From assembly GCA_023515725.1 (NCBI GenBank), contig JALDTO010000266.1, positions 929,042-993,041 of the forward strand: DNA of 64,000 nucleotides. The letters run 5' to 3'. Below the pieces are notes generated by a model, which saw nothing but the letters and a program-made list of their open reading frames with translations, searched no databases and had not been told where the DNA came from. Made by a program: the position numbers and the translations under genes. Origin of the DNA: Amoeboaphelidium protococcarum X5 (Eukaryota; Fungi; Aphelidiomycota). Positions 41,978-64,000 of this stretch are shown piece by piece (within the stretch, counting starts at the first letter, position 1; each line of letters starts with the position of its first letter).

Positions 41978-43171
41978 ATGAGTACATATTAGATTGCAAA
42001 AAATATAGTGAGCGTGGCGAGAGAGTATGCCAATGTTAATCAGACATAGGCGCGAGAGTACTGGGATTATGAGAATGCTGTTATTGAATGGGGAAGTCAG
42101 GATGATTATGAAATTGTGCGAAAATTGGGTCGCGGAAAGTACTCGGAGGTATTTGAAGGCGTCTGCGTCAATCCGGAGAGGATTCGAAAGATTAGGTAGA
42201 ATGATGACACTGCTAATAGGTAAGTGCAATTGTAGAATGCTAATCTATAGCAATCTCAATAGCAGCAACAGCAGCAGCAGTAAGTGGAAGATACAGCTGA
42301 AATGAAATGCGTGATTAAAGTCTTGAAGCCTGTGAGGAAGAAGAAGATTAAGAGGGAAATTAAAATCCTTTAGAATATTGCTGGTGGGCCTAATGTGATC
42401 AGACTGCTGGACGTGGTGCGGGATAGATCTTCGCGGACACCATCGCTAATCTTTGAACACGTCAATAATACTGATTTCAAAGTCTTGTATCCTACACTCA
42501 CACCCGATGATATCCGATACTATATGTATGAATTGCTTAAAGCTCTGGACTTTTGTCATTCACGCGGCATTGTGCACCGTGACGTGAAGCCACACAATGT
42601 GATGATTGATCATGAGCGACGAGAATTGCGCCTTATCGATTGGGGTCTCGCTGATTTTTATATCCCGGGTGTACTATTCAATGTCCGAGTGGCTAGTCGG
42701 TATTTCAAAGGTCCGGAATTACTTGTCGATTTCTAGTAGTATGATTACTCTCTGGACATGTGGTCACTTGGTTGTATGTTTGCCTCGATCATTTTCAAGA
42801 AGGAGCCCTTCTTTCAGGGCGATGACAATTATGATCAGCTGGTGAAGATTACCAGAGTTCTTGGTACTGAAGATTTGGTCTCGTATGTTCGCAAGTACAG
42901 CATTAATCTCGATCCGCATTACAATAATCTTCTGGTGCGTTGTGTTCGCAAGCCATGGAATAAGTTTATTAATGCATAGAATCAACAGTTTGCCTCTGAT
43001 GACGCGTTAGAGTTTCTAGATGGACTTCTAAAGTATGATCATGCAGAGAGATACTTGGCCAAGGAGGCGATGAAGTTAAAGTACTTTGACTCTGTACGAA
43101 CGTTATGTGAACAGAGGCATCAGCATCACTCGACTTAAAATGGGAATCCATAATCGTCCTCATAATCATGA
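41978..43171 (+). CDS. CKA1: Casein kinase II alpha subunit
   Basis: [68 protein letters not shown]. Confidence 0.96.
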
Positions 43172-43292: not shown

Positions 43293-45146
43293 TCAAATCC
43301 TCAAACTTTGATTAGCTTAATGGTGAGGCACATCGTCATCTACAGATACAATAGCATCAGCATCGCCTAAAATATCTTTATCGATAGTATGATTATTTGA
43401 AAGAGCAATACTATCCATAGCAGATGAAGATGTGACTTCAGTAGGACGTTCTAACTAACTCATTTCAATTGTAGTAAAATGCATGTCGTCTTCATTATCA
43501 TAACTAGAGTTATTACGGTGTGCACCATTAGCGTCATCATTACTATGCAAGGAATCCTATTACGATTAAGACGACAGAGATGAAGCAGTAGATATAGATT
43601 ATCGACGCAGTGCACGCAGACTTGCCACAGGGAAGACATAGTTCAGAGATCGACCGAACCAATTATTAGACTAAGAGTTCTGCTACCGTTATTCATAGTC
43701 CTACTATTATTGCTACTAATGCTACTACTCAATATCTGACAGAGATCGGTCACGATGGATGATGCTCTAATCAAGTGGCAATCTATTAACATCTTGCTTA
43801 TCCCCAGTATCACGGACGGCCCAAAATTCTTGAGCAATATTCAATTTACACAGTGGACATACTCCGCTCTTCTCGCATAGCCACGGCTAAAGACAATCAG
43901 AATGGAAGACGTGACCGCACTAGAGCACCTTCAACTCATTTCCCTCTTCAAAATCATCAATACAAATAGAGCAATTGGTGGCCAGTCTAATCACACTTTA
44001 CCGAATATCATCCGGTTTATGATGGATGGTGCGCAATGAGGAAGACCGCTCTAGAGCAGTTTTGGAAGACGCTGCACTTTTATAATCACCAAGATCAATT
44101 TCACCATCTGATTGTGGACGCTTATATTACAATTACTACTTCTACTATTGAAATGGACTCATCTCAGTATCTCCCACGTCCTATTTGATATTCACATACG
44201 AATCAACATTATCATCATCGCAATCACCAGGTAAAGGCTTATAAAAGAATGTTGGTAGAGAATTGAATTCACTCTACGTCAGCAAATGCCTCTGCCTATC
44301 CACCTGAGTCTATTCCATATTACGTTAACGTATCTAATTACGAATCCTGTAGAGATGACAGTGCATTAGAATGGAGGCCACAAAACTGAGAGCAAGCAGT
44401 ACAACCACCACAATAAGCGTAAACTCAATCACACCATATGGACTTGTAGGCACCACATCCTGCGCAATAATCAATTTCACCAAACCGGGACTGAATTCGG
44501 GATTAGCCTTGGCTGATACTTGTAGATACTGTAAAATTGTATTACCAACCTCAAAATCAACCAATACCAGAGGCACAGCTGGATTCTAAATATCAAATCC
44601 TACACTGCCATTAGATGCTAGATACTAATCCAAATCTAGGCTATCTGAATCCTTGGTGTCATACACTAATACAATATCCACGTCCAGAGATAGTGATAAG
44701 TTGACCTTCTATTCCAAAGAGCATCCATCTCGCGAGAGAATTAGAGCCTAAAATTAATTTCTATCAGTAATCGTTGGTGTATTTATATTTTATGACGATG
44801 ATGATGGACTAGCACTGCCATTCGTCGCTGTCAATACTGAAGGTGTGACGTATGACTTGTTCACACTGCATCCAGTGGTATCGTCCAGGTATAGAAATCC
44901 AACAGCATTCACCCCTTTTTAGAAATTGAGTACATTCTCACTGATAGCCGGCTGACTACTATTATACAGAATTTTAAGTGCAGGTGTCTAAAATAATCGT
45001 GGCGATAGATTCTAAGTACTCTGGTACGCATCAATTTAAATGTAATTCAAATAGTGTCGTTATTTGGCACTCATTCCCGTCAACCACGCATTAATTAGGA
45101 GTATATCCAGCAGACTAAAATTAATTAAGAGCCTAAGCACGTACAT
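43293..45146 (-). CDS. PA-domain transmembrane RING-H2 E3 ubiquitin ligase (RNF13/RNF167-like)
   Basis: Leader peptide; PA-like ALILSRDGCSLEQKV; TM LIVVVVLLALSFVASILMHC; RING-H2 CSICIDDFEEGNELKVLQCGHVFHSDCLQPWLCEKSGVCPLCK. Confidence 0.88.
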
Positions 45147-45487
45147 TAGACTATTATTATAATTCTTTAGTACAATATTTTCAAATTTAATTAACAGAAT
45201 TATAGCAATAGTAATAATAATGATAATGATAATAACTCCACCTGTAATTAACAGTGAAAAGGGAAAACGCGCGTTGGAGCGAAATGGTCACAGCCGCGAA
45301 AGATTAAAGTTGATCGAGCCAATCAGCAATGTCCACTCGCTCACTTGTTACTGCCAGCGTTAATGATCATAGGTTGTAGTGACAAATAGCAAAGTGATTG
45401 ATGGATAAAGAATTTTGGTGATATGCAATGAGCTGCTTATTGATTATAAAAATGACAGAGTTAAGTATTCAGACTGTACAGTAAAGT

Positions 45488-45692
45488 TGTTAGGTGGGTC
45501 ACTCGGCACAGAGCAGTGAGAACACCAGAAGAGTAAGGAACACAGCCCCAATGGACATAAAAAGTCCTAAGGAAAGACACAGCTTCACTCATAATATTCA
45601 TGTTGATTAATCGTTCTCTGACAGAGGCGCGGCTCCTTGATCTCTCCGCGATGAAACCATGGCGACTTTCGACACTCACCAGTCGTCTAACA
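45488..45692 (-). repeat. 3' LTR (205 bp) of a Ty3/gypsy element
   Basis: Minus strand starts TGTTAG and ends CTAACA (6-bp inverted termini); immediately preceded by a purine-rich tract AAAGCAGCGAGGAGA (45693-45707). Confidence 0.7.
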
Positions 45693-46250
45693 TCTCCTCG
45701 CTGCTTTAGGTGAAAGCCTACGGAGGATATACGGTAGAATCTAACAACTAGATTTAAATCTTTGCACCAGATCAGCGAACTTCTTCTCCAATAACTCCTT
45801 CGAAATCCAGGTGTCATCCTCAGAAGTTGATTTTCGGAAACATACCAAAGGAACGACTTCTTTCCATTTACATTCGAGATGCCATTATCATTTCAATCTC
45901 CATAAGCATTTCTCACTCGCATTCCAATGACAAATTCTTATTACCAAGCTCTGCATACAACTTCAAATTCTGGATATTAATGAATTGGTCATGCTTAATC
46001 TGCGGTGGCACGTTAATCCAATGTGCATTTAGAATGATTACATATAGAACTTTAAATGGCCATAATTCCTTGGATAGAGCGTCTTTGGGACTCCATCACA
46101 TTATTAAAATGATTCAAAAGCTAATTGGACATCATAACCAGGTCTCCTTGATGGAAGAGTTAATTGGCAATAGGGTCCTCATTGAACAGCGACGCGTTGA
46201 AATTTCTAAGATTCTCCTGGGCCTAATTATATTACCTTCCTACTTACAAT
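45488..46250 (-). mobile_element. Decayed chromoviral Ty3/gypsy retrotransposon 3' end (integrase GPF tail, chromodomain, PPT, LTR)
   Basis: Frameshifted peptides FHQGDLVMMS, LYPRNYG/PFKV, FINIQNLKLY, EIEMIMASR, GKKSFL, EDDTWIS. Confidence 0.72.
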
Positions 46251-46439
46251 GTAGGTACCTACCTATTTATTTTGTAGATATATATATATATTGCTGTTTT
46301 CTTATCGGAAAATTACATTTGAATATACCATTTTATGTTCTGTAGAATCTGCCACTCACATTAAAGCCAAGTTACCTTGGCGTTTCTGTGCTACTCAAAA
46401 ATAAAGTGATTGGATTGGATGATTTTGTACCACCCTTTA

Positions 46440-47203
46440 ACTTACCCAACGACATGTTAGCAATGTCAACTGTGGTACGGCCACTCTTCGCGCGGTCGTT
46501 GATAGCCCATCAGACACCTGCAATTGCCGCAGATAAAGTACATTAGCCTTAATAATCGCAAACTCTTATAGATACAATATCAGCTTATTTAGCAACTCCG
46601 GATAAGTTGCCTCCAACAGTAGTACCCACATGAGTTCCATGGCCATTTTAATCACCTTTATCACCACCATAAACAAAGCTTGTATCAAAACGAGCATTAA
46701 CAGTTCCATTTGCTTTTTTAAATTCAGAATGTTAAGTATCAACAACCTGTGTCAATGATGTAGACTGTTGTTCCGTTCCCAGCGTGATCAGGATACGTGA
46801 AAATCGTTTGGCCAGAAATCTTGGAACGTTAAGAACTACGGATCAAACCCCAATTTCTAGGACTGTGCTATTCAGCAAAAATGTGGGCAATGTAGTTGGG
46901 TTCGACAACATCGACTTCGGGCATAGCGCGCACCATCTCAACCAACTAATCATCCATCTTTGCAGCATAACCGAAGCTGTAATTGTGCATAACAGGGTTA
47001 TGGGATGACTCGGCGGATGCAATCAGACCAAATACACGGTTCAAATGTTCATCGATAAAGCTCTCAGATGAGGACACAGTGGCAGGCACATTCAAAGCCA
47101 CAATAAATTCTCCTGCAGCCACTGCAGACGCGTACTTCTGATTAGTAGAAACACAGCTAATAGAATCTACCAGACAGACACCAAATAATATAGTGTTTAT
47201 CAT
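46440..47203 (-). pseudogene. Subtilisin-like S8 protease (proteinase K type) pseudogene, 3'-truncated
   Basis: I9 prodomain GYAAKMD...VEPN; WGL; VYIIDTG followed by a +1 frameshift (~46745); NGHGTHVG; in-frame TGA at 46510-46512; ends at ANMSLG with no catalytic Ser region. Confidence 0.85.
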
Positions 47204-47380
47204 CTCCAAAAATGTTACGTTGAAGAAGAAGAAGAAAGTAAACGAGCGGCGTAATAAATAGGGGAAATTGATCTGATTACATAACATACAGTACTGTGTT
47301 TACCCACAAAATAAGCGAATAAGGAACAGCAACGGGATATTCACCGCCAATCAGACTGTTGCGCGCGGAGCCTGGACTGA

Positions 47381-47960
47381 TCATTATTGAGGATGTGGAG
47401 GATCGTACCGATATGGAGCCGGCCTTTCACCGCCATCGCAATTCCTTGCCATAAAGATGTAGCGAATGTTACGTGCAGCATTCACGTCACGGTGTCAGAT
47501 AGCTAAGCAATTGTTATTAGGACAATGCTTAGTTCTCCAGACGCGTGACTAGCCAAGCACACATTCACTGTTACTACATCTTTAACTGGTTCAGAACTCG
47601 GGCACCAAACGGACTTTGCAAAGTTTGTTCAGTTCATACAACAAAAGCTTGTTCGGAGTAGCTGGATAACCCGGGGAAGCGGTGTCAAAATTGCCAGCAC
47701 CATACGCAATATTGGTTTTGGGGTCAAACTTACCATCTTATTTCAGAGTAAGCGTACGTGCCAAATTGTCATAGGCCCGTTAGCGTTTGCTGAACGCCTA
47801 CCTCCTCAACTTTTGCCATTTATCAGGACGGTAGAAGCCAATGAAACCGTCTCTATGGTGCAGCACGTAACGCAGATGCTAGATGATCCCCAGGAATAAA
47901 GTTGATTTGGCGGAAGGAAATGTAGGTCATAGCATTAACTATTGCCGGAACCTGAGCGAG
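47381..47960 (-). pseudogene. Fanzor (eukaryotic TnpB/IS200-605-like RNA-guided nuclease), C-terminal half
   Basis: PSAKST..YVL..FY..KLRRQAFSKRQRAYDNL..IAYGAGNF..PGYPATP..VRLVPEF*TSQRC (RuvC-II), CPNNNC zinc finger, *HRDVNAARNI (RuvC-III), GERPAPYR; in-frame TGA at 47591 and 47495; RuvC-I not found. Confidence 0.85.
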
Positions 47961-47979
47961 AAAACTGCCGAAAAATATT

Positions 47980-49691
47980 GCACTTATCCTCCGCTCACCG
48001 TTTGACCTTATCTCAACCACATCTGGAATTATCTGTTGATTTGACTGTGATTGATGATCTCCAGATGTACGCGTTTCTGGAGCATTGTCAGCACCATCCT
48101 AAGATTATAATGTAGTGATCAAAAGCAAGTTGTCTTACGTAGATTAGACTTTACTCTATTATGTATATGCATCAACAACTCTAGGTGGGAATGAAGCGTG
48201 GATTCGGTGAGATAAGGCATCAACTTGCTATAATCGCTGCACAATTTTCCCCCATCTATCATTCATCCGTTAGGCCAGAACAAGCTTCGAACTCCAAACA
48301 CCAGGCTAAGAAACTGATTTAAATAAGTCAGCTACAATAACTATCTAAGATTTGATTAACTATAGACTCATGTATACAAAGTAACAATTCTTCAAGGCAA
48401 CGCTATCTGGCATGAGCAAACTGTCGGAGTTGCATAGTATCATCATTAACCTGAGCTATAGAACGAAAGTTGCCATGAAGCAAAGGCGTAAACTTCGGTA
48501 AATCTACAAAATCAATAAAATCCTCGCCGTAATCCAACTTAATTTTGAAAACCAACTCATTGAATTATCGAACCAACTTAGCAATGTTTACGCCTCTGGA
48601 CTTCAGAGCTCTTTCGAAAACCTTCTTCTTGAACTAACTGGAAGTCTACTTCGATTTATAATCTAGAAGAACTCTCATCTCAACTAATTCACTCTAAATA
48701 GATTCTAAAACAACTCGAAATCTCTTATTTGTGAATGCGATTTTGGTCACCTTATACTCAGGGTTCCCCACTGTCCATCGATTTGCTAGATTAATACCCA
48801 ACTAATTCTCCAATCTTTAAACTTGTATGATTATGTTCGAATTATAAGGGCTCTCTTACAAATCCTCCAGATACTTAATATACAATTCATAACGCGTCCA
48901 TTATTGCTGACCACCTGAGCGGCCAAGATCGGCAGGAGTTCTTTATAAAATCTCTATGCATTTATAGTTAACAGAAACGTCTTGAGATTACAGTGATGGA
49001 TGTGCGTAAAGATATTCTTCTAGAACAAGAAGTTCTTACTCCGCGTTCTCGTATCGTTGAATAATTTACATAACGGTCTTATCATTGAGCTCTTAGTTGT
49101 AGCTTTAAAGAACAAACTCAAGAATCTCTTCACGAGTGGCCAACGAGACGTTCTTCGTGATGTATCCGAAGTTTCCAATCACTGACCAAAGGCTCTCATC
49201 AGATCTCCAGCAGTCTTTCCCGAACGTAAAGAATACTTGCTGGAGTAAACTTCCTGGCACCCGCTGTGGTGCGCATATAGATGGAGCGCCGGAACCAACG
49301 ATTCTACACCGCTAGTATCGATATCAACGCGGCGAGCAGAATTCTTTATCCACTAACACCCCACGTCGTAATAATTAGTTGGATCTCTTGTGGGACGCTT
49401 TCTCTTAAAAGACTTTCTTAAGGTCTTCTTCCCTCTTCTTTCAATAATATTATCACCAGGACGTGCGTTAATATCGATCCAACCATCATAGTCCGCCAGC
49501 TAGTAGATATCGTGATTGAGTAGATCTTCAAACTAATCCACGTGTTATCTCCCAGCCGGAACGACTCCCGCTTTGGCATCTTGGACAGTATCAAATTTAA
49601 GACGAATTAAATGCTCAGGTGCTACAGGGATATCTGACATCAATATCATAAATAATAATATGAGGAGTTTGAAAATTACATATAAACGCAT
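47980..49691 (-). mobile_element. Decayed Kyakuja-Dileera-Zisupton (KDZ) transposase, internally deleted and frameshifted
   Basis: YYDVGCQW..VPALHLYAHHSGCQ..GKTAGD/SDESLWS..TKNVSLATREEIL; LENQLGINLANRWTVGNPEY; RALKSRGVNIAKLVRQFN; RQRCLEEL. Confidence 0.75.
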
Positions 49692-51198
49692 TCTTGAATT
49701 TACCTTAATCCTTCCCAAAGTCTGAAGATGTATTGCTAGATTTTATTTAGGATATTCCATCGACTGTTTCTTTAAGAAAGCATTTAATGCTTTTATGTTT
49801 GGAGAAGAAGTATTTGAAATGCATTGATATACGCCCTCTTAACTGCGTGCACTAGAAAATGCGTGCAAGCACGGTCATATGGTCTTTAGTGTGAGTAAGC
49901 ATATTCCACACGTAAACTTACATCTGAGATTGACTAATGACTGTAGAGGAAAATGTCACCAAAAAAAAATTGAAATAGAGATAGGACACGTCAAACAACC
50001 AAGTTGCAGTGTAACTACACGAGACTTCCAAAACTTCTTTTCAAGAGCAATATATAAGCGCTAACTTTAAAGTAGATGCTTGCGAAAGTATGAGGAGCCA
50101 CCAATATAGCAAACAATCTGAGAACGACGCGGCGAATCCAGAGGCAGTACATTTTGACTTATTTAATAAAGACACGTACAACTTGATGACATCCAGCTAT
50201 ATAGCGTATTTTGGCTACTTTGCTGTACCGGAGACATATCCAAGCGTCAGCAAAGCTTTGAACAATCCATACTTCTTTGATGTTATATGTTTGCAAATTT
50301 CGAAATCGCGGTCAGCAACACCATTAGAAAACAAACATAATTTAACAGAATGCATAGACTTTGTGCAACTAAAATCTACAGAGGATGCAGACAAATTTAT
50401 ACCGCACTTATATTCTAATTGATGCGATCTTAAGCGCTGATACAGGTGGAATTACTTGTCGCGATGCACTTCAACAAAGCAATCTTTACAGAACTATAGA
50501 CAGTCATAACATGTAAGACATCTGAGTTAAGAAAGTCCTTTATCACACACAGAACAGCCGATATCAACGGCACAGTCGTGATGCTTGAAATAGAGCTTAT
50601 CGTTACAAGCCTCCACGCAATCACGAAAAGTAATGGTGGGATCAGGTCTGGCATTTCTCCGTCTAAATGACTAGCTAAACCCCCTGGCTTTCTTCTATCT
50701 TTTATTCTCCCTCTTATTCTCCGCCATTTGGTCACCAGTTACACGCTAAACACGTCAAGACCAAGCAAATCGTTCAACTCAAGATCAGCCATCTAGTCCA
50801 CTCCACCTTCATTGGGTTATAGCTAATTACTGTGGCGTTTAAATCGGAGCAGATGATCAGGTGTTACAAGTAAATGATATCAATCTTCATGTTTAAACAT
50901 TCGAAAGTGGACTCTTACAGAAAACAGCATTATTGAATTTGTTCGCTGGCGATGGCGTTTTCATAGCAGGCACAGCTTTACTCTTGATTTAAGAAATCTT
51001 CTTAGATCCATATTTCTCATAAACAGACACTTTATATCGTCGATGTTGCTTTCTAGGTATCTTTATTTTAGTCATGACTGTATAATTGTCAAGCGAAACG
51101 ATCTAAAAGGGAAGAAATAGTTTTTCACAATTTTCTTCGTTTCAGAAACAAAGCTCATGATCGCCGCGCGAAAAAATTGTTAGTTCACCACTACTGCA

Positions 51199-52875
51199 AT
51201 GCCGCCAAGCCATGCACACCCACTACTACTCGGCACGTCCGACTTTGACAAGATTATTGAAAAGGATGCTCTATTCATTGACAAAAGTCTCTTTATAAAG
51301 GAATTCATGAATGATGGCTCCAAGGTCGTTGCCATTCTTCGTCCGCGTCGATTTGGCAAAAGCACCAATCTGTCAATGCTCAAGTCATTCTTGTCATTGA
51401 ATGCCCAATCTAGTCATTTTGATCGCTATCTCATCGGCAAGGAGAGTGAAATTGTATAACAGCATTGTGGTAAATATCCTGTTGTAATGCTTGATCTCAA
51501 GGACTGCAAAGGTGATTCATGGGAGCAGATGTACAGCTCTGTTTGGCTCTGTATTCGCTAAATGGTTTTGCGTCATCGACACGAATTGGCCGAAGCAATT
51601 GCACTACTCTCAAGAGATATGGACTTCACAAGAATGACTACTCACGCTAGCGAAGTCGTTGTCGGTTCATCACTTAAATGGCTTACCCGCGAGTTGAATG
51701 AAAAGTACGGCAGGCGTGTTGTTGTATTGGTGGATGAATATGACGCGCCTTTAAACCATGCATTTCGTCAAGGTTACTATAATAAGGCCTCAGAATTCTT
51801 TGGTCTGCTGTACTCTTCGGCGTTGAAAAGTAATGATGCTCTGGAGAAAGCCTGTTTAGTGGGCATTGTAGAAGTTCGAGGCGCTGGTATTCTATCTGGT
51901 CTTAATAATATTCAAGTTTACTCGGTCGCTGATAGAAGATATTCAGCCTTTTTTGGATTCTCAATGGATGAAATTGGCTCATTGGTTCCTGAAGAATCGA
52001 CTAAGAAGAATGTCAAAGACTGGTATAATGGATACTGTATCGGGAATGATTTGCTCATCAACCCTTGGTCGTTTATGTGTTGGTATAGCCGTGATTTTTT
52101 TGATTCCTACTGGGCTGGCTCGTCATATACGGAAACTATTGCTACAATTCTCAAACCACATTTAAAATAATCCTTAATGGAGATCTTTGCATTGCTATAC
52201 GATCAGAAGCAGATGAAAGTGTCTAAACTCAGCTCTCAGGTTAATTACTCAAACGAGGATTGGGATACCGATGGGATTATTCATTTTCTCATCCACACTG
52301 GCTACCTGACTTATCGTGTAATTGATGATGATTCATTTAGATCTGGCGTAGCTTGGATTCCTAACAACGAGATTCGTAGTAATTGGGAGTCAAATATTAA
52401 GGATCTCTTGCGTTAACAATTCGTACCTCAATTTGGGTCTCGTATTGAAGAGGTATTTACTGCAGAGACTCCGAATATATCGGATTTGCAAAATGTGATG
52501 CAGGATATGTTGATGTTTTGCTCTTCACACGATTTAACGAAGAAGTATGAAAATTCGGGCCACGTTTTCTACTTTGGGGCATTTCTTTCCATATTGCATT
52601 ATGGAGTGAACATCACAGTGACATCGAATCTCGAATCTGGTCTTGGCAGGCATGATATCCGTATCCGATTTCTTCATTTGAAAAGGGTTTTCATATTTGA
52701 ATTCAAGCTTTCGAAGCGTGAAAGTGATCTTCAGGAGGATGCTGAAACGGGCTTGAAACAAATCATTGATAGGAATTATGTAGCCGATTTGCGCGATTGT
52801 GAATGCTTCCTAGTTGGCGTTGCTTTTTACGGCAAGAAGTTGTCTGAGTTGGCAGTCAATAATATCCAAGTATGA
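51199..52875 (+). CDS. AAA-ATPase-like plus PD-(D/E)XK nuclease protein (AAA-ATPase_like/PDDEXK_9 architecture), intact and intronless
   Basis: GTSDFDKII..FIDKS..RPRRFGKSTNLSML, VLVDEYDAP, SGLNN, WYNGY, NPWS, GYLT, IPNNEI, SNLESGLGRHDI..IFEFK..QIIDRNY. Confidence 0.9.
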
Positions 52876-53100
52876 CATAAACATTGGTTAACTTTATTGT
52901 CTTGTCCTTCTAATTTCTCCTCTATCGGGCTCTATTTCTTCCCTTTCACATATTCTCTTTTCCGCTTAAGAAGTAATATCTTGTATCTGACTCTTTTAAA
53001 ACAAATAAAACGCTTGTTTTCTTTTGCACCGGTAGTGTTTTGCACCTTGCACCCGGAGAAACGCACCGAACTCGCTTTGTTACAATCTCGACCGTCTCGC

Positions 53101-55533
53101 ATGTCTGGCAGGAAGCGTTCTAGAGCAGTGTAGAGTGACTCGTAGCCATCTGGAGGTGGTATCACCACCTCCAACAGTAGTACTGGCATCCCAGCCGTTG
53201 ATGAGTGTGCTGGTGTTGGCAGTAGTGTCGGCGTATCCGCCTCCTCAAGTTCTGGTCTGGCTGGGTGCGAGGCTGAAACAAGTGTTGTTAGCATGAATCA
53301 AACTGCTGATATCACTTCACAAAGTTCTGCTCAAGTCAGTGCTGCTTTCAATAGGTAGCTGGAGAATGAAGATGAAGATGACGACGACGATTACGACTCT
53401 GATGATGGTCTGGATGATGAGCAGTTGGCGAAGAAGGTGAAGAGACGCAAGAAGTCGGAGAACAGCCATGTGTATCGCATTGAAGCGGCGTACAAGTATA
53501 AGCTGGATGAAGGCATTGGAGAGACGTTGAAGCTGCTGAGGTTGACTCGATCCGACGTATCTGTGCCACTCACTGGCGGTAGGCCTTTGGCTGTGAATAG
53601 TATGTAAGCCTACTAGAAGCATTACAGAGGATTGCGGTACTTTTTTGCGCTAATTGGTGACTACAGCTCGAGTTTAATGCTGCTTCCTAACCCCCCGCAG
53701 TACACACCGTCAATGAACGCCAAGAGCATCATTTTGTTTATCAAGTTCAAGCGTAATGAGAAGGGTTCTTTGCTAAAAGACGAGAATGGCAACGCTGTGA
53801 AATGTGTCTATGGGCACGATATCAAGTGCTAGGGTGGTTGGAATATGCCACAGAATGTTGACCAGTTGTTATCGGCTGTCTCTGTGCTGCATGATAGTCG
53901 TAATTAGAGGGGGGAGTACAGAGATATCTGCGAAGAGTGCATCCAACGTTCTGAGCGTGGTGATAGATCTGGCTGTCGGTTCCATCCGATGGCTCCTCGT
54001 ATTTGGCTGGGTGGAGATCCAAAGAATTCTTCCCTCATGACTAACATGTAGAGATTGAACTCCCGCGATGGATGCAGCTACGTGTCCGAAGGCAGCTAGC
54101 CGCTCACACCTTGGGAATTACTACGTCTCCGCGAGTATTTCATCTCGAAAAATGATGCGAAGTCATTCATGATGTGGACGATGATTATCGTTAGTATCAA
54201 GCTATTTCTGCGCAATGATGAAGTCACCGATTTGAAAATTCATGATCCTAGGCTGGAAAATTGTCTCAACAAGGATCTTGCGACCTTTCAAAGTGATGGC
54301 AGTATATCTTCCCTTGCTTTCTACATTAAAGGCAAGTCTGATCGTGTTAGAGTGTGCTTGACTCTTTGGACGGATTATGATGTGCCCGAATTGTGCCCGG
54401 TTCGTGCGCTTTTGACGTGGATTTTTATTTCTGGGATTAGAACTGGATTCTTGTTCCCTCAAGAGAGTACACTGGATGCTGTGAAGCAAGTTGGGCATGC
54501 GGCGTACAACATCTCTTACGTATCTTATCATAGGCAGTATCAGAAAGCTTGTAAGATTGCTACCGGCAATCCCGATGGTAAATTTGGTACGCACACTAGT
54601 AGGAAGACTGGCTATTTGCTTGCTGTTTGGGGAATGGGATCAGAGATTGACATCACTAAGAGTGCGCGACACGCTTCGTCCGCTAATGCCGCATTGTATA
54701 AGAAGGATGCTAGCTATTTGCTAGAATTAGCGAAGACTAGACGTTTGGACGTGTCTTCCGTGGTAAGCAAATTCAGATCAGCCTACTGTGAGTAGCTATA
54801 GATGGCTCGCAGTCTGAATGCTGCCCATTCTAGAGGCAATTTTTGTCTGCAGCAGGTGAGTCAAGAGATTGTTCGTAGCTTATGTGGATTATCTGATGTT
54901 GATGCAGTTGGTGGACCTAGAGTGATTTACGATGCACTTCTCCAGTTGCAGAAGAAAGAGACTGTGCTGCAGCTTATTGAGGCAAAGTTGAAAGAAATTG
55001 CACCTAATGCCACTCCGGAGGAGATTAATGAGCTGCGTAGGATGCTTGAGCTTTATGCGAATGGATTGATTGCTGCCACTCAATCAGCTAAGTTGAAGTA
55101 GCCAAAATCTACTCTGACTTCTCAATAATCTTCTTCCAGATAGTTACGTGAACAAGCTGCGGTTCACTCTGATGATGAACTCTATGAATCCGATGAAGAA
55201 GACACTGACGTAGCTGATGTTGTACCTGCCATCACAGCTGTTCAGTAGGATGAAGTTGTGAATGATATGCCTGGGAGAGAGAAAGTGAGAAAAGCGAAGA
55301 CTGCCATGGCGAAGTTGGAGGCCATTCTTGCAGTGGATGATCCTGGCTCAACCGTCGGGTTATCAGCTGGCGCCAAATCATTCTACGTGAAGCAATACTG
55401 CCCGATCATGAAATGTCTGAGAAAGCACTTTGGCGGTGATTTGGATAAGTTCATCGCACATTGGGGGAACTTCAAACCAACTAGCTTCAAGACAAACAAT
55501 TGCTCTGGTACCATGGATGAGTGTAGTATTTGA
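53101..55533 (+). mobile_element. Crypton-type tyrosine recombinase transposase (810 aa), intact
   Basis: Catalytic residues FLRNDE (R), KGKSD (K), GTHTSRKTGY (HxxR), SARH (H), ALYKKDA (Y); LCPVRALL; Cys/His cluster CEEC..GCRFH..GDP. Confidence 0.85.
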
Positions 55534-55674
55534 ACAAGACAGATAATATGGAGACTGAGATTGAAAGTGGATTTAATACAAAAAGTTTAATGCAAAATCA
55601 TTGAGGATTTGTTTGAAACAACTGACTTGTCTGTTTTCTGCGAGATCACCGTCGCGCGCTCGATCGCTCGCGCA

Positions 55675-55994
55675 TTCTTCCAACGTCAACCTTAACGGTT
55701 TCCGTTTTTGCACTTTGCACTTTTAACAATAAGAGCATTTTATTCATCTCAAGCTTTCTTTCATTTCTATAATAGTTTTTACAACTTGGTAAAAAAAGTG
55801 AGTAAAATGTAGTTTATAAAAAGAAGTTCTAAAACTTTGTATTTAGAACTCAAAATTATTTAGACTAACAAGACTTCAAGGATTTACCAGCTTTTTACAT
55901 ATCAATGTAAAACTAATACGATGAATTAATAACTGGTAATCCGTATATAAAAAGATGCTTGATATTCAAATGTTTGTAGATACAGGAAGGTTGA
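55675..55994 (+). pseudogene. 5'-truncated small two-TM protein (SLATT-like) at the viral junction
   Basis: ILPTSTLTVSVFALCTFNNKSILFISSFLSFLQQFLQLGKKSEQ...YDELITGNPYI; no upstream in-frame ATG. Confidence 0.4.
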
Positions 55995-56031
55995 TTAAAA
56001 AATATTATCTTGTAAAGAAGTAAAGACTAAA

Positions 56032-56766
56032 ATGGAAGGTATTACTGAGAAGCAAATAGTGTATTTACACTCTAAATTTAGAGATTAAGGTAGCATTTCG
56101 AATCCTCAGTACATCTTAAAAACTCCAATCACTTAAGCAAAACGTGTGAAAATTAAGAGACTTCTTATTCCACTAAGTTTGTACACCTTTGACACTCGTA
56201 ATTAAAAGTTTAGTATTCAAGAAGAGACTTCAGCCACTGTTTTCAACTTTACAATTCCTCAAGGATTTTACAGCAGCACGACACTTCCAGATGTGCTGGA
56301 AACTCTTATAAATGCATCCACCACTGGAGTGTTCACTATAACTTACAATACACTTACAAACACTTTCACCTTTTCAAGTACTGAATCGTTTAGATTTGTA
56401 AGTGTAAGTTAAAATGAAGCTTACTATGAGTTGGGTATAACAAGTGATTAGATAGGTGGAGTTTACAGTACAACAGTCACAGGACAAGACTAAATAGATT
56501 TGTCAAGTTCATGTAAACAACTTTACATATAGTCAAATGTAGGAATTGCAAAAGTTCATAATACACAGAAGAATATAATGGCCTGTATAAACATCCCTTA
56601 AAGTAGTGTAAACATTGGGTTTTATTAAGATGACGGTGGTGATTATATGGACATAAACTAGTCTCAAGTTTCCACATTGGACTTTACACTTTACGACTCC
56701 CAATTCAGACCTATTGTTTCAATGTTCAAAGATTGGAGCATTGATATTATATTTGAACAAGAATGA
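56032..56766 (+). CDS. Minor capsid (penton, single jelly-roll)-like protein
   Basis: Beta-rich 244 aa with the pattern YLHSKFRDQG..LIPLSLYTF..FTIPQGFYS..L..LIN..TYNTLT..ELG..IDL..LYIQSN..LDFTLYD..DWSIDIIF, typical of PLV/virophage/NCLDV pentons. Confidence 0.72.
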
Positions 56767-56782
56767 AACTGAAGTTTACACT

Positions 56783-56817
56783 TCAAAACATATCAAAGTA
56801 ATAGTCTTATTTTTAAA

Positions 56818-56856
<39 letters not shown>

Positions 56857-57373
56857 GCTGCTGCTGCTGTGGCTCTTCCTCTTCTTCTTCTTCTTCCACT
56901 TTTTCAACCTTTTACTTTTTTACAGTCTTTACAGGTTTCTTACGAACCACTTACCTCTTTGGTTGTTGAGGTGGCTCAGGTTTCAATAAGTTTGATAATT
57001 TAATAAGACTCTTTTTATCAAGTTATACTTTTTACTTACTTGGTTTAACAAGCACCTTCTTCTTCTTCTTCTTTTTATTCACCTTTTCACTTTTAACACT
57101 TTCAATTGAAGAATCACTTTGACTTTCACTTGAACTGGAACTACAGGAACTGGAACTGTCAGTATCACTAGATTCACTTTCACTTTCACTTTCCTGTTTT
57201 GGTTTTGTTTTTTGTTTTGGTTTCTATTTCTGTTTCTTCTACCTTACAATTTCAGGCTTTTTCTTTGGTTATACAGTTTTAAATTTAGGTTCAACTTCTT
57301 ATTAAGCTCCACAATATCCACAAAACTCCACTTTTTATCCAATCTTTTTAAAACAACTTTCACACACTTTCAT
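56783..57373 (-). CDS. Viral zinc-ribbon protein with Lys/Ser/Glu/Gln low-complexity tail
   Basis: MKVCESC..FCGYCG; poly-Q encoded by (CAG)5(TAG)12; ends at TGA. Confidence 0.7.
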
Positions 57374-57500
57374 TTTAACTTGTCTTTGATTTTACTATAA
57401 TGTAAGAAAATAATTTAAAAATTGATTCATATATCAATTCAAATTAAAACGAGCTCAGTTTGATTTAAAAAATAAAATCTAAGTATAGTAATAATAAAAA

Positions 57501-58541
57501 ATGACATATTAAAACTTTTTGGCTGACAGGAAAAGCGCGTCAAGCAAATACAATGCCGAACAACTATGGGATTTCCTTGGAGATGACCTTTTAAATCTGA
57601 AGACTTTGGAGGACAAGGAACGCGTGAAGAACAAGATTTTAACAAGCGACACTTTAAAAGACACTGTTAAAAAGAGTTTCATTTCAACCTTGAACGCTTA
57701 CTTAAAAACACCAGCTTTGAACCTGTACGAACACACAGATAGAGATTTGACGATTAGATTAAATGAAGAATACTAACAGAATAAAGAACCAAAAAATGTT
57801 CATGAACACACTTAGTTAAATGAAAAGTTTTAGTAGTATTGTCATAATTTAATGAACAGAGAAAAGGTTGGTTATAGTGAATATTCACAAGCTCTTTTAA
57901 TAGCATTGTGCTTGACACAAGCCCCGAAAAGAACAGCGGATTACTTCAACTTGTAATGGAAACACATTGATATTAAAAATCAAATTATTAATTGGCCTGA
58001 GCTTTCAAAGGTGTAAAGAGAAGCTGAGCCGTAGAAATATAAATATAATACTACGATACACCAATTAATTGAAAAGATTAATTAGAGATTTGATTTGGAA
58101 AGTGAACAGTTTGTGATTGAATACTAGGGAAATCGTCTTGATGACAACGGAGGGTATGTAAAGTTTCTACGTAGAGCAAGTTAGAAGATTTTAGAATAGT
58201 CCTTGACCGGTAATGATTTCAGGAAGATTTGGGTGTGTAAAGTTCACTTTGAAAATATGAAAAACCCAAAAAAGTTATACGATAAATTACAAGAGACAGC
58301 TAAAGACATGGGAAACAGTTATAACACACTACAAAAACACTACAACATTCATAATCCTGAAACAGAAGTTGAAGCTGAAGAAGCTGCGGCTGAGGTAAGT
58401 ATTGGAACACAAACAGAGCCTTGTAAACTTGAAAACTATTTGAATCAAATAGAATCTGTGATGAAAAGATTCAATATAACTGACCCTTTCAAAGCACGTG
58501 AATTTCTGCTTCTTTGTAAAAATGACGTCACAACTCAGTGA
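57501..58541 (+). CDS. Viral tyrosine recombinase/integrase
   Basis: QAPKRTADY (R), LSK (K), TGNDFRKIWV (xxxR), AKDMGNS, LQKHY (Y). Confidence 0.78.
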
Positions 58542-58546
58542 TTTTT

Positions 58547-58570
58547 CGATTATCGTGTTTTCGATAATCG
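58547..58570. terminator. 9-bp perfect hairpin between convergent viral genes
   Basis: CGATTATCG-tgtttt-CGATAATCG in the 40-bp gap between two TGA stops. Confidence 0.4.
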
Positions 58571-58581
58571 TTTTTTTGATT

Positions 58582-59490
58582 TCAGACTGTTTTGAAAATA
58601 GCTGTAAACAAGTGAATTAATACATCTACAGCCATACTATTACCAGCTTGTTTATACATTTAAGAGTCGCTAACTACTTGTTTGAAAGACGGGGAGAAGC
58701 CTTGTAAGTTTAAACATTCTCTGGGCAATAAGAAACGATTAAGTGTGGTATAATAGTATCTATTACAAAACGTAACCAGCGTAGGACATATTTTATAACC
58801 TTATACTCCCCAGTTAAAATCAGTAACTATATAATCTTTCTAGTAATTGATTTAATCCAAGTTTTTCAATAGAGTTTTATTCTTTCTATCAGTACTAGAA
58901 TTTCCTTTAAAATTTTTACACATCATGCTTTCCAATGACGTCATTGGAATTTTAGGAGGTGTTTGATAATCGGTAATCTAAAGTGATTTCTTGATTCCAA
59001 AAATAAACAGTCTTTTTCGATTTTGCGGTAAACCGTAATCTTTAGCGTTCAAAATCTCAGTGTAAAGGTTGTAAACCTCGTCTTTTTAAAGCTCTGTTAA
59101 AAGGTAATTATACGCCGTTCCATTCTATGATTTTACAAATCTTGGCACATTTTCAAGTATGAAAATATTTGGTTTAATAGTTTGTATTGTCTTGATACAC
59201 TCTTTCATCACTTCAGCTCTTGGGTCGTCAAAACCACGTCGCTTCCCGAGCGTGCTGAATGATTGACATGGGAACCCACATACGTATAAATCAATCTATG
59301 GAAGTTTTGAATGGTCTCTTGTTAAGATATCATCATAGAAATATTCTGGTTCGTAATTAGCTTGAATACTTTTCTTAACAAATTTATCCACGTCGCAGCT
59401 GAATACATGTTTAAATGGAATCTCCATTCTTTAAAGAGCTTATATCGGAGCTTCAATACCACTACAGTCTGTTCCAATTCTTAGAACCAT
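58582..59490 (-). CDS. C5-cytosine DNA methyltransferase (prokaryote/virus type)
   Basis: TDCSGI (motif I variant), DLYVCGFPCQSFS (IV), ILENV (VI), YGLPQNRKRLF (VIII), YKQAGNSM (X). Confidence 0.93.
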
Positions 59491-59578
59491 CTTTAATCTA
59501 AAGTAGTGGAAAAATTTGTTTGAACAATCGAATGGATTGAAAATAATTTTATTATTAGTAGTAGTAAAGTAAAACAAA

Positions 59579-61114
59579 ATGGGTAAGGTTATTAACGTTT
59601 ATCACACTTCTTGGAGTAATTATGGAAGAAATTTTCAAGTTGCTGATTTAGGCAAGTAGATAGATGCGGGCGTTAGTGATGTGTCTTACGCGTTCTTTAA
59701 TTTAGTGTAAGAAGCAAACGGTTGGATTATAAAGAGTGGTGACGAATGGGCTGAGTTTTAGAAGACTTATGGAACTGATGGAAAGGCTTCTGTAGGTAAA
59801 CCTGACACGTGGGAAGATTCATCCGCTAACAACGCCGGAAATTTTGGACAACTTAGAAAGTTGAAGGAGGCTGGGAAACAATTTAATCTTCATCTGTCTG
59901 TGGGCGGATGGACATGGAGTAAAAACTTTTCACTAGCTGTAAGAACTCCAGAGTCTAGAACAACTTTAGTCAGTTCAATAATCCAATTCTTTAAAGATTA
60001 TCCAATTTTTAATGGAATAGATTTCGATTGGGAGTATGTAAGCAATGACGGTAAGAATTATGGTAACGAAGGGAATATAGCACACCCTGACGATTCTAAA
60101 AATTTTCAATTGTTTTTGAAATAGTTGAGAACTGAAATGTAAACCAACGGGTTTGGAAGTTACATTATTGGTATGTGTGTTGTTGCAGCCCCTGAAAAAG
60201 CTGTGTTTGATATTGAAAATGTACATCCGCTTGTTGATGAAATAAGAATTATGACTTACGATTTTCATAGTGGCGGTTTCGGTGAAAAAATTACAAGACA
60301 TTAAACAAGTACAAGAAAATCACAGTTTAGTAATTATTCAGCTGAAGAAGCGGTTGATTTTTACCTTTCTAAAGGTGTGCCGTCTGAAAAGCTTTTAATA
60401 GGCGTTGCTTTTTACTCTAGAGGGTTTTCCAATTCTCAAGGTTTGGGTAAACCTGCTGATGGAAACAGCCCCGACTTTCAGTTTGCTGAAGAACCCGGTG
60501 TTGTGCCCTATCATATGTTACCACGTCCTGGTGATACTGAGCTTTTTGACCCGGAAGCACAAGCAGGGTATTCTTACAGTGAAACTAGAAAAGTCTTCAA
60601 TTCATACGATACTGTTGAATCTGTAAGGGCGAAATGTAAATTAGTAAAAGAGAAGAACTTGAAAGGTATAATTGTTTGGGAATCTGCAGGTCATACTAGA
60701 GATGTTGGAGGTCCCCGTTGTTTGATTACAGCTATGAGAAATGAGTTTTCTGGTTAATCACCTGTTAATCCTCCGCCTGTAAATCCTCCTCCCGTTGTTA
60801 ATCCTCCTCCGCCTGTTAATCCTCCACCTGTAAACTCTCAGGTTTCTTAGTGGAATCCTTCAGATTTTTACAAAATTGGTGAAAAGGTTGTCTATAACGG
60901 TAAGGTGTATGAATCTTTGAATAGTTTTTAGAGTATTTCTGTGTGGACTCCTGATACAGTTCCAGCACTCTGGAAACTTGTAAGTGATAATACCCCTTCA
61001 CAGCCAATTGAAAAACCTGTTGAAAACCCCGCTGACCAATCAGCTGAGAATAAATATTTGAGATTTATTTAAGAATTACTTAAACAAATAACTGATTTTT
61101 TAGAAGACAATTGA
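59579..61114 (+). CDS. GH18 chitinase with Pro-rich linker and CBM5/12-like chitin-binding module; no signal peptide
   Basis: SVGGWTWS, FNGIDFDWEY (DxDxE), MTYDF, GVAFYSRG, SYDT, IVWE; VNPPP repeats; WNPSDFYKIGEKVVYNGKVY..WTPDTVPALW. Confidence 0.93.
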
Positions 61115-61184
61115 AAATCAATAATTGAAAAATGAAAATCAATAATCAAAATTGATTTAACCAAATCAATTGTGTGAAAACACA

Positions 61185-61466
61185 ATGAATCAAGAAAATA
61201 TTGAGAAATTGGTTAAAACACTGTCAAAAGACTTTAAAGTTTGTAAAGAGATTAACACTTATAACGGTAAGGAATTTAAGAGAGTACTTTACAAGTAATA
61301 TAACGACGAATTCATTAAAGACCATTCCAAGAGGATACTGTAAGAATATTTACACCGCTGGTTAGAGTTGTACAGTATCACTTTTAAGTTTAAGAAGGAT
61401 TATAACGAATTACTTAACCAAGTTATTAACAAACTTGAAGAGATTGACGAACCTTGTTCAATTTGA
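61185..61466 (+). CDS. Hypothetical viral protein (93 aa)
   Basis: ATG-to-TGA frame open under TAR=Gln, filling the gap between the chitinase and HNH genes. Confidence 0.55.
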
Positions 61467-61468
61467 TT

Positions 61469-61972
61469 TCAACCTTTAGGAAATTCAAGAATGAAACGAT
61501 GCCCTTAACTATTTAATTCTTCCATTGTTTAGTTTCTTATAATTACTGCGTCTTCAAAGTGTTCAAAACAACCGTAAGATTTTTTTTAGCGGTTTATATA
61601 AAAATATACCCGCCATTTCCCAGATTATTTACACCAACTGATATTACATTCCCCTGAAGTATTGTTCTTTTATTTTCCACGGTATTGATTATTTTGTTAG
61701 GGTGTAACTATTTCTAAATTGTCTAATCTGTTATCATCTTTAACTCCGTTGATGTGGTTTATATGCATACCTTCAGGTATTTCACCTACAAACATTTCGT
61801 AAATTTTGCGGTGAACTAAAACCGTCTTTTTCACATTAGTATCCCAAAATTGTAAATATCCCCGGTTATGTAAGCTCAGCTTTTAAAATTACCCCTATTT
61901 TTTATTAAAAATCTAACCATTAGAAAAATACCAATAAAAGTCGTCTTCAATACTTATAACACCTTAATTCAT
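61469..61972 (-). CDS. HNH endonuclease with C-terminal AP2-like domain
   Basis: RGYL..VHRKIYEMFVGEIPEGMHINHINGVKDDNRLDNLEIVT..N, NNTSG..ISW..GKWRV..YGCF..AVIIRN. Confidence 0.88.
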
Positions 61973-62019
61973 TTTTATCTTTAAAATACCTTAAAGATAA
62001 AACTTTAAATTAAAATATA

Positions 62020-62352
62020 TCACTTAACTTTCATAAGTATACCTCTCTACTAATGACCGTCAATTTTTTTCATTTTGATAGCGTATTTACCTTCCAACAT
62101 TTAACTAAATGAACAAGTAAATATCTTCCTTGGTAGATTAGAAGCAGGGTTCACTCTTTTATGATATTCATATAAGTCTCTAAAAGTTATAAAAACATAA
62201 TCTTTGTCTTTGATACTATATTACTACAAACTTTGTTTGTTTAACTCTATTAACTCTAGAAACCCCTGTAAATAAATCTACGCTTCTTTCACTCTTTTAT
62301 CGTAAAACAACTGGTAAGCGTTTTTAAATGCGTCTTTTACTTGTTAATCCAT
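62020..62352 (-). CDS. Hypothetical viral protein (110 aa), possibly winged-helix like a D5 C-terminal domain
   Basis: ITFRDLYEYH..IFTCSF..KKIDGHQQRGI. Confidence 0.5.
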
Positions 62353-62489
62353 ATTTTTGTATCTTTTAATTACAGTAAAATATATTCAATTCTTTAAATT
62401 ATGTTTAAGATAAAAATATTTTCTATTTGTTATAATTAAACTAATATATATCAATTTAAAGATTTCAAAATATATAATATTAAAACAAA

Positions 62490-64000
62490 ATGGTGAATTC
62501 AAACTTGGATTAAAAACTGGAGAATTTCTTTAACAACCAACCTTTTCAAGATACCAAAAGTAAGATTGAAAAGGTTAATGTGAAGAAATTAAACTACTTA
62601 CTCAGTAATAAAGATATTGATTAAAAGCACTTGGAACAGTTGAAAAAGTATCAACAAAAAGTTAAAAACTCCAAGAAAAGTGTGAGTTATTGTTACGCTA
62701 AGGATAGAACAAAAAGTGGTTTTGAGAGACTTTACGCGAGAGACGGTCAAAGTCTTCAAATGATGGAGAAAGAAATTAGAGGTTTTTTAGCTGATGACAA
62801 TTACTATGACGTTGATATCTCTAATAGTCACCCGATGATGGTTTACAATCTGTGTAAGTCTCTAAGTATAAATAGCCCTTTGATACAAGATTATATTGAA
62901 ACTAGAAGCGATTGGATATAAATGGTACAAGATGATAATTAACATTTGGAACCGTATTAGTGTAAAGCTGCTATACTTGGTGTTCTAAACGGTATGAGTC
63001 TGAAGGGAAATGAGGAGATTGAGGGAGATTTTAGTTGTTTGAAAGACTTTAAAAGTGAGGTTGACAATATTAGAAATTCCATTGTAAACTTCCAACAATT
63101 CAAATTCATTACTAGAAAATATAAAGAAGAATCAAACTTGACCAAGTTTTCAAGCGTAGTAAATCACTATGAAAGAAAATTGTTGATGAAATTACAAGAA
63201 GAGTTTACAGCCTTACATTACAATGTAGACGTCTTGATTCATGACGGATTTTTAGTGGACAAACACAAGAAAACGGAAGAGTAGTTGTAAGCTGACATTT
63301 AGAGTGTAGTTCAGAAAATTAGTGAAATATACGACTTGAAATATCTTGAACTCAAAATAAAGCCTTTTGAACACAGTTTCAGGGACTACAATGAAGAAGA
63401 GTAGAACGAAGAGAAAGAGTATAACTTTTTCAAAATGGCAGACAAATTCATAGAACTTTATGGCGATAGATTTTGTATTAGTGGAGGTATCTTATTCTAC
63501 AAGAACGATGACGCCTTTTGGATTGAAGACTCAGAATAAGGTTATCTCAATTCTTTTTTGACAAAATCCAAATTTTACAAAGAAGTGAATGAAGATTCTT
63601 AGGTGTTTGAACATTTAGTAAATTGTGATAAATTTTACCAACAACTTAGAAACAAGATGATTATAAAGTAAAAGGATAGAGTGTTTCAACCAAATCAACA
63701 GCTTTTAAAAGATAACGAAATCAATACTTTTCCAGGATTTACACATCCTACTAATTTACAAGTAAATTCAAGTGAGATTCAAGAATTCATTGACCTTGTA
63801 ATGAACTAAGCTCAAGGTGATTAAGAAAGATTTGAGTTTTTAATGAAATGGTACGCCAACGTATGTAAAGGTAATAAAAATGAGACTTGTATCATACTGT
63901 TTTCCGATACTCAAGGAACTGGTAAATCTTGTGTGAGTCAATATATTGGAGAAAAACTTCTACCTCAATTCTTTTACTAGACAAGTAATATGGAATCTGT
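62490..64000 (+). CDS. TVpol (PolA-family primase-polymerase) fused to SF3/D5-like helicase; partial at window end
   Basis: RLYA..SLQMMEKEIRGFLA..YYDVDISNSHP (motif A), CKAAIL..LNG (B), VLIHDGF (C); INTFPGF..FLMKWYA..ILFSDTQGTGKS (Walker A). Confidence 0.85.

Follow-up and report, generated by a model that had tools for sequence, protein, structure and literature searches.

Does a DNA virus lodged in the chromosome of a host with a reassigned genetic code use that code itself and, if so, were the reassigned codons acquired by a replicating lineage or by an inserted copy? The question is raised by a stretch of 64,000 nucleotides (nt) of Amoeboaphelidium protococcarum X5 (contig JALDTO010000266.1, positions 929,042 to 993,041), hereafter the window, which carries a virus-like element at 56032–64000 (all coordinates are those of the window). 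In A. protococcarum, an algal parasite of the fungus-related Aphelidea, UAA and UAG are read as Gln (PMC5304391).

The Virus-Like ORFs Are Written in the Host's Code

The virus-like stretch comprises nine nonoverlapping open reading frames (ORFs) under table 6, in which TAA and TAG specify Gln, and is 94% coding. According to the initial annotation, every viral ORF contains in-frame TAA or TAG, is intact when these are read as Gln and, where complete, ends in TGA. We found this for all nine ORFs and for the stops of all eight complete ones, the ninth running past the window edge. In coordinate order, they contain 10, 26, 12, 10, 10, 2, 11, 7, and 15 TAR codons (TAR standing for TAA or TAG, and CAR for CAA or CAG), 103 in sum. 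The 2491 codons include 56 TAA, 47 TAG, 69 CAA, and 21 CAG, and not a single in-frame TGA. Read in the standard code, 56032–64000 falls into fragments, each of the nine ORFs being halted within codons 3–38. The host part, represented by the first 47 kb of the window, encodes ordinary eukaryotic genes that are likewise open under table 6 alone; its GC content of ~40% contrasts with 32% for the virus-like part. A CK2 kinase of the host part belongs to a 90% protein cluster of which the three other members bear the name A. protococcarum, whereas no exact sequence match was found in the protein collection for two further host proteins. No tRNA gene was found within the window. The virus-like ORFs use the code of the host, with TAA/TAG at Gln positions and TGA as the sole stop.

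TAA and TAG Stand at Glutamine Positions

The in-frame TAA and TAG codons might alternatively be real stops resulting from nonsense decay or assembly error. Stop codons in viral insertions of protists are often artefacts of assembly (Bellas et al. 2023, PMC10120064), and several TAR sites of the element do fall on non-Gln columns. We aligned the C5-cytosine DNA methyltransferase (MTase; 58582–59490, minus strand) and the chitinase (59579–61114, plus strand) with their homologs. In the search queries, each TAR codon was replaced by X; for the alignments, TAR and CAR alike were hidden. The sets consisted of the best 120 of 2739 MTase matches, which are 46–53% identical, and of the top 30 of the 150 chitinase matches listed. 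They span 19 of the 20 TAR sites of the two genes, one site being without cover.

Summed over the TAR columns, the log-likelihood is 12.1 for Gln, −4.3 for Glu, and −13.7 for Asp. The mean Gln frequency is 0.199, compared with 0.026 at random non-CAR columns, and none of 100,000 permutations reached 0.199. Each of the control codons CAR, TAY, GAR, AAR, TTR, TGG, and TCR recovered its own residue. For TAA alone, Gln scores 5.6 and the next residue −5.6. The pattern named beforehand as the signature of decay, TAR codons on conserved Tyr, Trp, or Leu columns, did not occur: the mean frequencies of these residues are 0.006, 0.000, and 0.059. CAR columns are as mixed as TAR columns (Mann–Whitney p = 0.35), and a standard-code chitinase that is 57% identical (locus L001) has CAA or CAG at five of nine aligned TAR sites and at three of ten aligned CAR sites.

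Some details of the column test weigh against a uniform assignment to Gln. Taken one by one, TAR columns are mostly variable. The separation is weak for TAG alone (Gln 6.5 vs. Glu 4.3). Gln is on top at three of the ten MTase TAR columns (0.51, 0.78, and 0.94), the others being led by Asp (0.88), Lys (0.78), Glu or Pro (0.63). In the chitinase, Gln is tied for the top at one of nine columns, while one TAG lies on a Leu column (0.55) and one TAA on a His column (0.70). The four invariant Gln residues of the MTase are all encoded by CAA, and strongly conserved Gln columns are occupied by 2 of 19 TAR vs. 7 of 18 CAR sites (p = 0.06); CAA at the invariant positions could result from a recent gain of the gene or from avoidance of TAR at critical sites. 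The alignment check had been proposed for three genes: it favored Gln for the MTase and the chitinase and was uninformative for the TVpol polymerase, which has three distant homologs.

A second line of evidence comes from TGA. About 66 TGA are expected in 2491 codons from the off-frame TGA density, against an in-frame count of zero. Under a random nonsense model, ~21% of new stops are TGA, and the probability of observing none among 103 is ~2e-11, or 1e-8 without the ORF that contains the poly-Gln tract described below. No frameshift interrupts the ORFs, and the four indels and the single duplication listed for the viral part either lie between genes or have lengths divisible by three, in a listing that leaves out 67 more indel rows. 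Contigs of two sequencing runs, X1 and X5, have no listed difference at the ten TAR codons of the ORF at 56032–56766. The catalytic motifs, reported to be intact in the initial annotation, are readable in the translations: the strings GFPCQ, ENV, QNRKR, and GNS in the MTase, DFDWE in the chitinase, and YYDVDISNSH and IHDG in the polymerase are what we take to be these motifs. Because no TGA occurs among the 103 codons and the TAR columns score best as Gln, with Tyr and Trp near zero, TAR codons mark Gln-type positions and nonsense decay is excluded, against which the initial annotation had argued. The column test and the zero-TGA statistics refute both decay and assembly error, to which we attach practically no probability.

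The same annotation singled out a poly-Gln tract, (CAG)5(TAG)12, as the clearest case. We found it exactly where it had been placed (56819–56869, minus strand), but it is a poor witness: the ORF in which this microsatellite lies is of low complexity and without significant family match, and the host has similar TAR runs. In the host, poly-Gln runs consisting entirely of TAA, or of a mixture of TAR and CAR, are located at 10105–11238 (minus strand), 41978–43171 (plus strand), and 43293–45146 (minus strand), and such tracts are therefore ordinary in this genome.

Codon Usage, Copies, and Timing of the Recoding

When was the element recoded? The TAR:CAR comparison called for by the initial annotation gave equal shares. 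TAR represents 103 of 193 Gln codons (53%) in the virus and 349 of 662 (53%) in a set of 20 host ORFs (349 TAR and 313 CAR; Fisher p = 0.93, and p = 0.65 when the poly-Gln ORF is left out). By contrast, 13 of 18 codon families differ between virus and host at p < 0.01, and the GC content at third codon positions is 0.31 vs. 0.42. Viral Gln codons end in A at a frequency of 0.70, like viral Lys and Glu codons, vs. 0.47 in the host. Across four related standard-code loci, TGA terminates 2/28 ORFs, vs. 8/8 complete ORFs here (p = 1.5e-6). The C-terminal tail of the MTase, 20 residues long, is of ordinary length (16–33 residues in 112 of the 120 homologs) and therefore shows no read-through extension. 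The idea that viral TAR use lies below its mutational equilibrium was dropped, there being no virus-specific deficit. In the virus, T occupies the first position in 50% of Gln codons vs. 80% of Leu TTR/CTR codons; the values for two-fold third positions are 0.63 in the virus and 0.69 in the host, vs. 0.50 and 0.53 for Gln.

Several sequencing runs were compared with the window: X1; X5, a sediment metagenome; X6, from organism B; and X13, which bears the species label of X1 and derives from another sample. In X1, the summed contig depth of the element is mostly ~290–640 (139 in one repeat-rich bin), vs. 64–83 for exact flank contigs. This suggests several copies of the element, depth being no copy number. 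Pieces of the element are 83–100% identical in X5 and 84–98% identical in X6. In another A. protococcarum assembly, a partial chitinase that is 93% identical has Gln, in the annotated protein, at six of the seven TAR positions covered. For the ORF at 56032–56766, the window copy and the majority copy in X1 show nine differences, of which eight are synonymous (p = 3.5e-5): this ORF is under purifying selection. The proportion is less favorable in X5, where five of eight changed codons are synonymous and three nonsynonymous. X5 covers most of the element and also contains contigs on the host-type AAA gene, and therefore does not show free virus. In X13, the transposon that neighbors the element is covered and 56071–64000 practically not at all; no contig joins the two, so absence of the element is unproven. 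Runs X9 and X10 have one and two short pieces, respectively, on 55450–56800.

Because the TAR share has reached the level of the host while the other codon usage stays virus-like, and because most differences between the copies are synonymous, the recoding likely took place in a replicating lineage before the insertion of this copy. Alternatively, a standard-code virus might have integrated long ago, its Gln codons drifting to TAR within the chromosome, and the host might later have copied it. The element would then be domesticated or passively amplified DNA, and an infectious TAR=Gln virus would never have existed. Such a history accommodates the equality of the TAR shares, the failure to find a free table-6 relative in the collections scanned, and the fact that the element is known from its DNA sequence alone. 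However, drift in the chromosome should have moved the other synonymous sites to host usage as well, and 13 of 18 families still differ; the bias that governs the third positions of Gln codons is the viral one. Eight TGA stops out of eight, an MTase without extension, nine adjoining ORFs free of frameshifts, and TAR codons common to copies a few percent apart also speak against it. We consider this alternative quite improbable and retain a recoding that preceded insertion.

Gene Content and Likely Identity of the Element

A TVpol-helicase, a putative tyrosine recombinase, a Dcm-type MTase, and an HNH nuclease are gathered in one compact AT-rich stretch. The first three are gene types that Yutin et al. 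(2015, PMC4642659) list for Polinton-like viruses. As the gene content fits this list, we regard this multicopy integrated DNA element as probably a Polinton-like virus of A. protococcarum; its use of the host's code likely reflects a long history of replication in TAR=Gln cells.

The replicase gene is the last ORF (62490–64000, plus strand), which is cut by the window edge and has 15 TAR among 503 codons. It is predicted to combine a TVpol domain (family A polymerase/primase) with a superfamily-3-type helicase. A structural model of the TVpol part matched family A DNA polymerases over residues ~25–300 (Foldseek best E = 1.3e-5, prob 1.00), and its predicted local distance difference test score (pLDDT) is ~70–90 across most of these residues. 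The helicase part has a Walker A-like GTGKS motif, its homologs carry PF19263, and primase PHROG matches fall on the C-terminal part. The closest of the three homologs of the ORF are 27–30% identical. Together, model and matches assign the ORF to the TVpol–superfamily 3 helicase fusions, a replicase type of Polinton-like viruses.

The putative tyrosine recombinase (57501–58541, plus strand, 346 amino acids [aa], 12 TAR) is likely an integrase and shows no sequence similarity to the recombinase of the neighboring transposon. The MTase (302 aa, 10 TAR) matches PF00145 with E = 3.9e-58. The chitinase (511 aa, 10 TAR) associates a GH18 domain (PF00704, E = 2.2e-61) with a CBM5/12 chitin-binding module (PF02839, E = 7e-10) and is present in NCBI nr as the exact table-6 translation; the exact sequences of seven of the eight complete viral ORFs were not found in the protein collection. 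The HNH endonuclease (61469–61972, minus strand, 167 aa, 11 TAR) matches PF13392 (E = 9e-19) and phrog_99 (E = 4e-43). The ORF at 61185–61466 (plus strand, 93 aa, two TAA) has no family and that at 62020–62352 (minus strand, 110 aa, 7 TAR) no significant one. The ORF at 56783–57430 (minus strand, 26 TAR), which contains the poly-Gln tract, is of low complexity, rich in Lys, Ser, Glu, and Gln, with zinc-ribbon-like CxxC pairs at its N terminus; zinc-ribbon matches are under the cut-off. Its start is probably Met20 at 57373, giving 24 TAR instead of 26.

The beta-rich product of the ORF at 56032–56766 (plus strand, 244 aa, 10 TAR) is a candidate minor capsid (penton) protein by a resemblance that could not be confirmed. 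Sequence searches found no homologs, and a single-sequence model (pLDDT 35) gave no meaningful fold match.

The name virus, used from the outset by the initial annotation, thus finds support in the TVpol-helicase and the gene content, whereas a capsid gene and membership in the Polinton-like viruses are unproven. Alternatively, with the code assignment still correct, the element might be a TVpol transposon devoid of a capsid, or part of a larger insertion of giant-virus DNA in the same host. Neither a double jelly-roll major capsid gene nor an A32/FtsK-like packaging ATPase was found among the nine ORFs, in 8.3 kb of an element that continues past the window. Taken with the unconfirmed minor capsid, a Phage_integrase match of the recombinase that is under the Pfam cut-off (E = 0.0048), and an element documented so far as DNA sequence only, these gaps count against a virus. 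Loci that resemble giant viruses harbor close relatives of both the chitinase and the MTase, and the element runs beyond the window, other copies extending to the left of 55738. On the other hand, the TVpol-helicase, the putative tyrosine recombinase, and the MTase all belong to gene types listed for Polinton-like viruses (PMC4642659). The stretch is 94% coding, AT-rich, and multicopy, with purifying selection in one gene, and the giant-virus core genes PolB, RNA polymerase, VLTF3, and large major capsid protein were not seen in these 8.3 kb, past which the element continues. No RVE integrase was found in the part of the element seen, and no long inverted repeat in 45000–64000. Of the ~15–40 kb with defined ends (TIR or att sites) expected of a Polinton-like virus, 8.3 kb are visible here. 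A transposon or a giant-virus fragment therefore appears unlikely, and a Polinton-like virus remains our preferred reading.

Possible regulatory motifs were noted upstream of the genes. TTGA[AT]T occurs within 90 nt upstream of five of the nine viral starts (56032, 57501, 61185, 62352, and 57373) and sits at −33 to −41 in four of them (shuffle p = 0.004, for a motif picked post hoc). AAAATTGA, presumably the mimivirus early promoter, lies upstream of two of the nine starts. Either motif is a possible viral promoter.

Relatives of the Chitinase and Search for Free Table-6 Viruses

In a quick tree of 57 of 59 candidate rows, the two short ones being left out, the chitinase belongs to a nine-row group (SH-aLRT 100) together with chitinases of AT-rich standard-code loci. 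These loci carry TBP, TFIIS, DNA ligase, and ribonucleotide reductase genes and, judging from this gene content, look like giant viruses. The closest chitinase relatives found thus lie in standard-code giant-virus-like DNA. In two standard-code metagenome loci, L005 and L006 (around L006:2380-8595), the surroundings of the related chitinase include a match to an A32-like ATPase, another GH18 gene, and a small-subunit ribonucleotide reductase that is split.

The initial annotation proposed a search of metagenomes for free table-6 relatives. None came to light in viral contigs and one metagenome scan. In viral contigs, queries with TVpol, a TVpol alignment, the chitinase, the ORF at 56032, the recombinase, and P0001 found none. 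The MTase scan of viral contigs returned 57 loci, of which one has a single stop in the match and none a second gene of the element, and the metagenome scan with the chitinase returned 12 loci, each with no stop in the match. As the scans work by back-translation of short exact peptides, relatives that are distant or contain TAR would escape them, and their blank is therefore weak.

Left Edge and Neighboring Mobile DNA

To the left, the virus-like DNA abuts a transposon. The two overlap by 7 bp, TTTTATT (55738–55744), and whether the viral terminus lies there is unproven. Contigs of runs X1 and X5 have other, mutually near-identical sequence ahead of 55738, and three X1 contigs depart from the window behind 55744/55745. 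The alternative upstream sequence of other copies repeats the 9-mer that follows the overlap; this upstream sequence was not found within the window. The overlap is a candidate attachment site or insertion target. In one reading, the element normally extends leftward and the present copy was truncated by the transposon or by a rearrangement; in the other, the 7 bp serve as an attachment core, and the alternative contigs represent joined ends.

The transposon, which ends at ~55744, has an intact tyrosine-recombinase ORF of 810 aa (53101–55533, plus strand), which we assume to be Crypton-like. Its depth is ~3000 in run X1, and near-identical pieces are present in X6 and X13. The recombinase belongs to an 11-member protein cluster. 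The transposon has a GC content of 46% and likewise uses TAR, with 15 TAR and 24 CAR codons. Further upstream, a gene at 51043–52875 (plus strand) encodes an AAA-ATPase-like protein with a PD-(D/E)XK nuclease (PF09820, PF08011), of which several diverged paralogs exist in host runs. ORFs at 48328–50727 (minus strand) have a weak CxC1 match under the cut-off (E = 0.0019), which suggests a KDZ-type transposon. Including this candidate, the AAA gene, the transposon, and the virus-like part, the nested mobile DNA amounts to ~16 kb in total.

A Probable Host Barrier and Comparison with Known Systems

How could a virus come to use such a code? Since TAA and TAG do not halt translation in the host, genes entering from standard-code viruses, in which TAA is the usual stop, would first have needed a TGA stop; this step would have been selected. 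CAR codons would afterwards have drifted silently to TAR until about half of the Gln codons were TAR, and Lys and Glu codons, one step away from a Gln codon, would offer a further route. The CAR to TAR change was probably neutral and the stop-to-TGA change likely the selected step. The notion of an adapted lineage therefore survives for the switch of stops to TGA; CAR to TAR changes are silent in the host and require no selection.

The process may act as a one-way ratchet: in a standard-code cell, every gene is halted by codon 38, and the lineage would be confined to TAR=Gln hosts. The host-range restriction put forward in the initial annotation is borne out insofar as standard-code cells would truncate all nine genes, whereas the barrier would not exclude other TAR=Gln protists. 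Nothing shows that the lineage ever infected algae. Such a barrier would be a by-product and need not be an adaptation. In the life cycle envisaged, the recombinase would integrate the element, the TVpol-helicase would prime its replication, and the chitinase would act on the chitin wall or cyst of the host. A role of the chitinase on the host wall is plausible; the host itself upregulates chitin-related genes during infection (PMC8657485).

Matching of viral and host codes has already been published, and what is new here is the host group only. Endogenous viral elements of the oxymonad Streblomastix strix use the host's table, with TAA/TAG as Gln, from which the authors concluded that virus and host have long been associated (Bellas et al. 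2023, PMC10120064). Like these Maverick/Polinton-like elements, the element described here is an integrated small DNA virus in its host's TAA/TAG=Gln code. It differs in its host, an aphelid, that is, an opisthokont related to fungi in which the code arose independently, and in its TVpol-helicase, putative tyrosine recombinase, and chitinase, the comparison being made without a capsid gene. With the PgVV-type Polinton-like viruses (PMC4642659), it shares the TVpol-helicase fusion, the Dcm methyltransferase, compactness, and integration in a protist; an OLV11-like tyrosine recombinase in these viruses has its counterpart in the putative tyrosine recombinase here. Code 6, the GH18 chitinase, the absence from the window of a visible major capsid or packaging ATPase gene, and the low identity of its closest TVpol homologs set it apart from them. 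ORFs that need a protist code with reassigned stops are also found in a giant-virus genome from family IM_12, for which code 6 gives the best reading (PMC13524828), and in ciliate-code cruciviruses (PMC7468197) and RNA viruses (PMC7508674). For those viruses the host was inferred from the code, whereas here the host is known and the element lies in its chromosome.

A literature search by title and opening of the abstract found no such element in aphelids; the host genome paper may mention them. The main text of bioRxiv 10.64898/2026.10.13.758929 has no match for aphelid or genetic code, and neither Amoeboaphelidium nor aphelid was found in the readable parts of the supplements of PMC10120064 and PMC13524828.

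More speculatively, and we hold this to be doubtful, the element may be a Polinton-like virus that is active to this day in aphelids, which are sister to Fungi. It would excise and reintegrate, its chitinase, acquired from giant viruses, would open the host wall, and its code would lock it into the parasite, without expression in the surrounding alga. If so, a giant helper virus of aphelids with TAR=Gln would await discovery, and a major pest of algal ponds would have a natural enemy in the element.

Beyond this scenario, gene calling in the standard code misses such elements, and a metagenomic virus that uses code 6 does not necessarily have a ciliate host. The element provides an independent case, in a fungus-related host that is known, of a eukaryotic DNA virus matching the reassigned code of its host. 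Its genes can be dated against standard-code relatives, so that the recoding may be followed in time. As the host is a parasite living inside standard-code algal cells, the system would offer a clean test of reassigned codes as viral host barriers.

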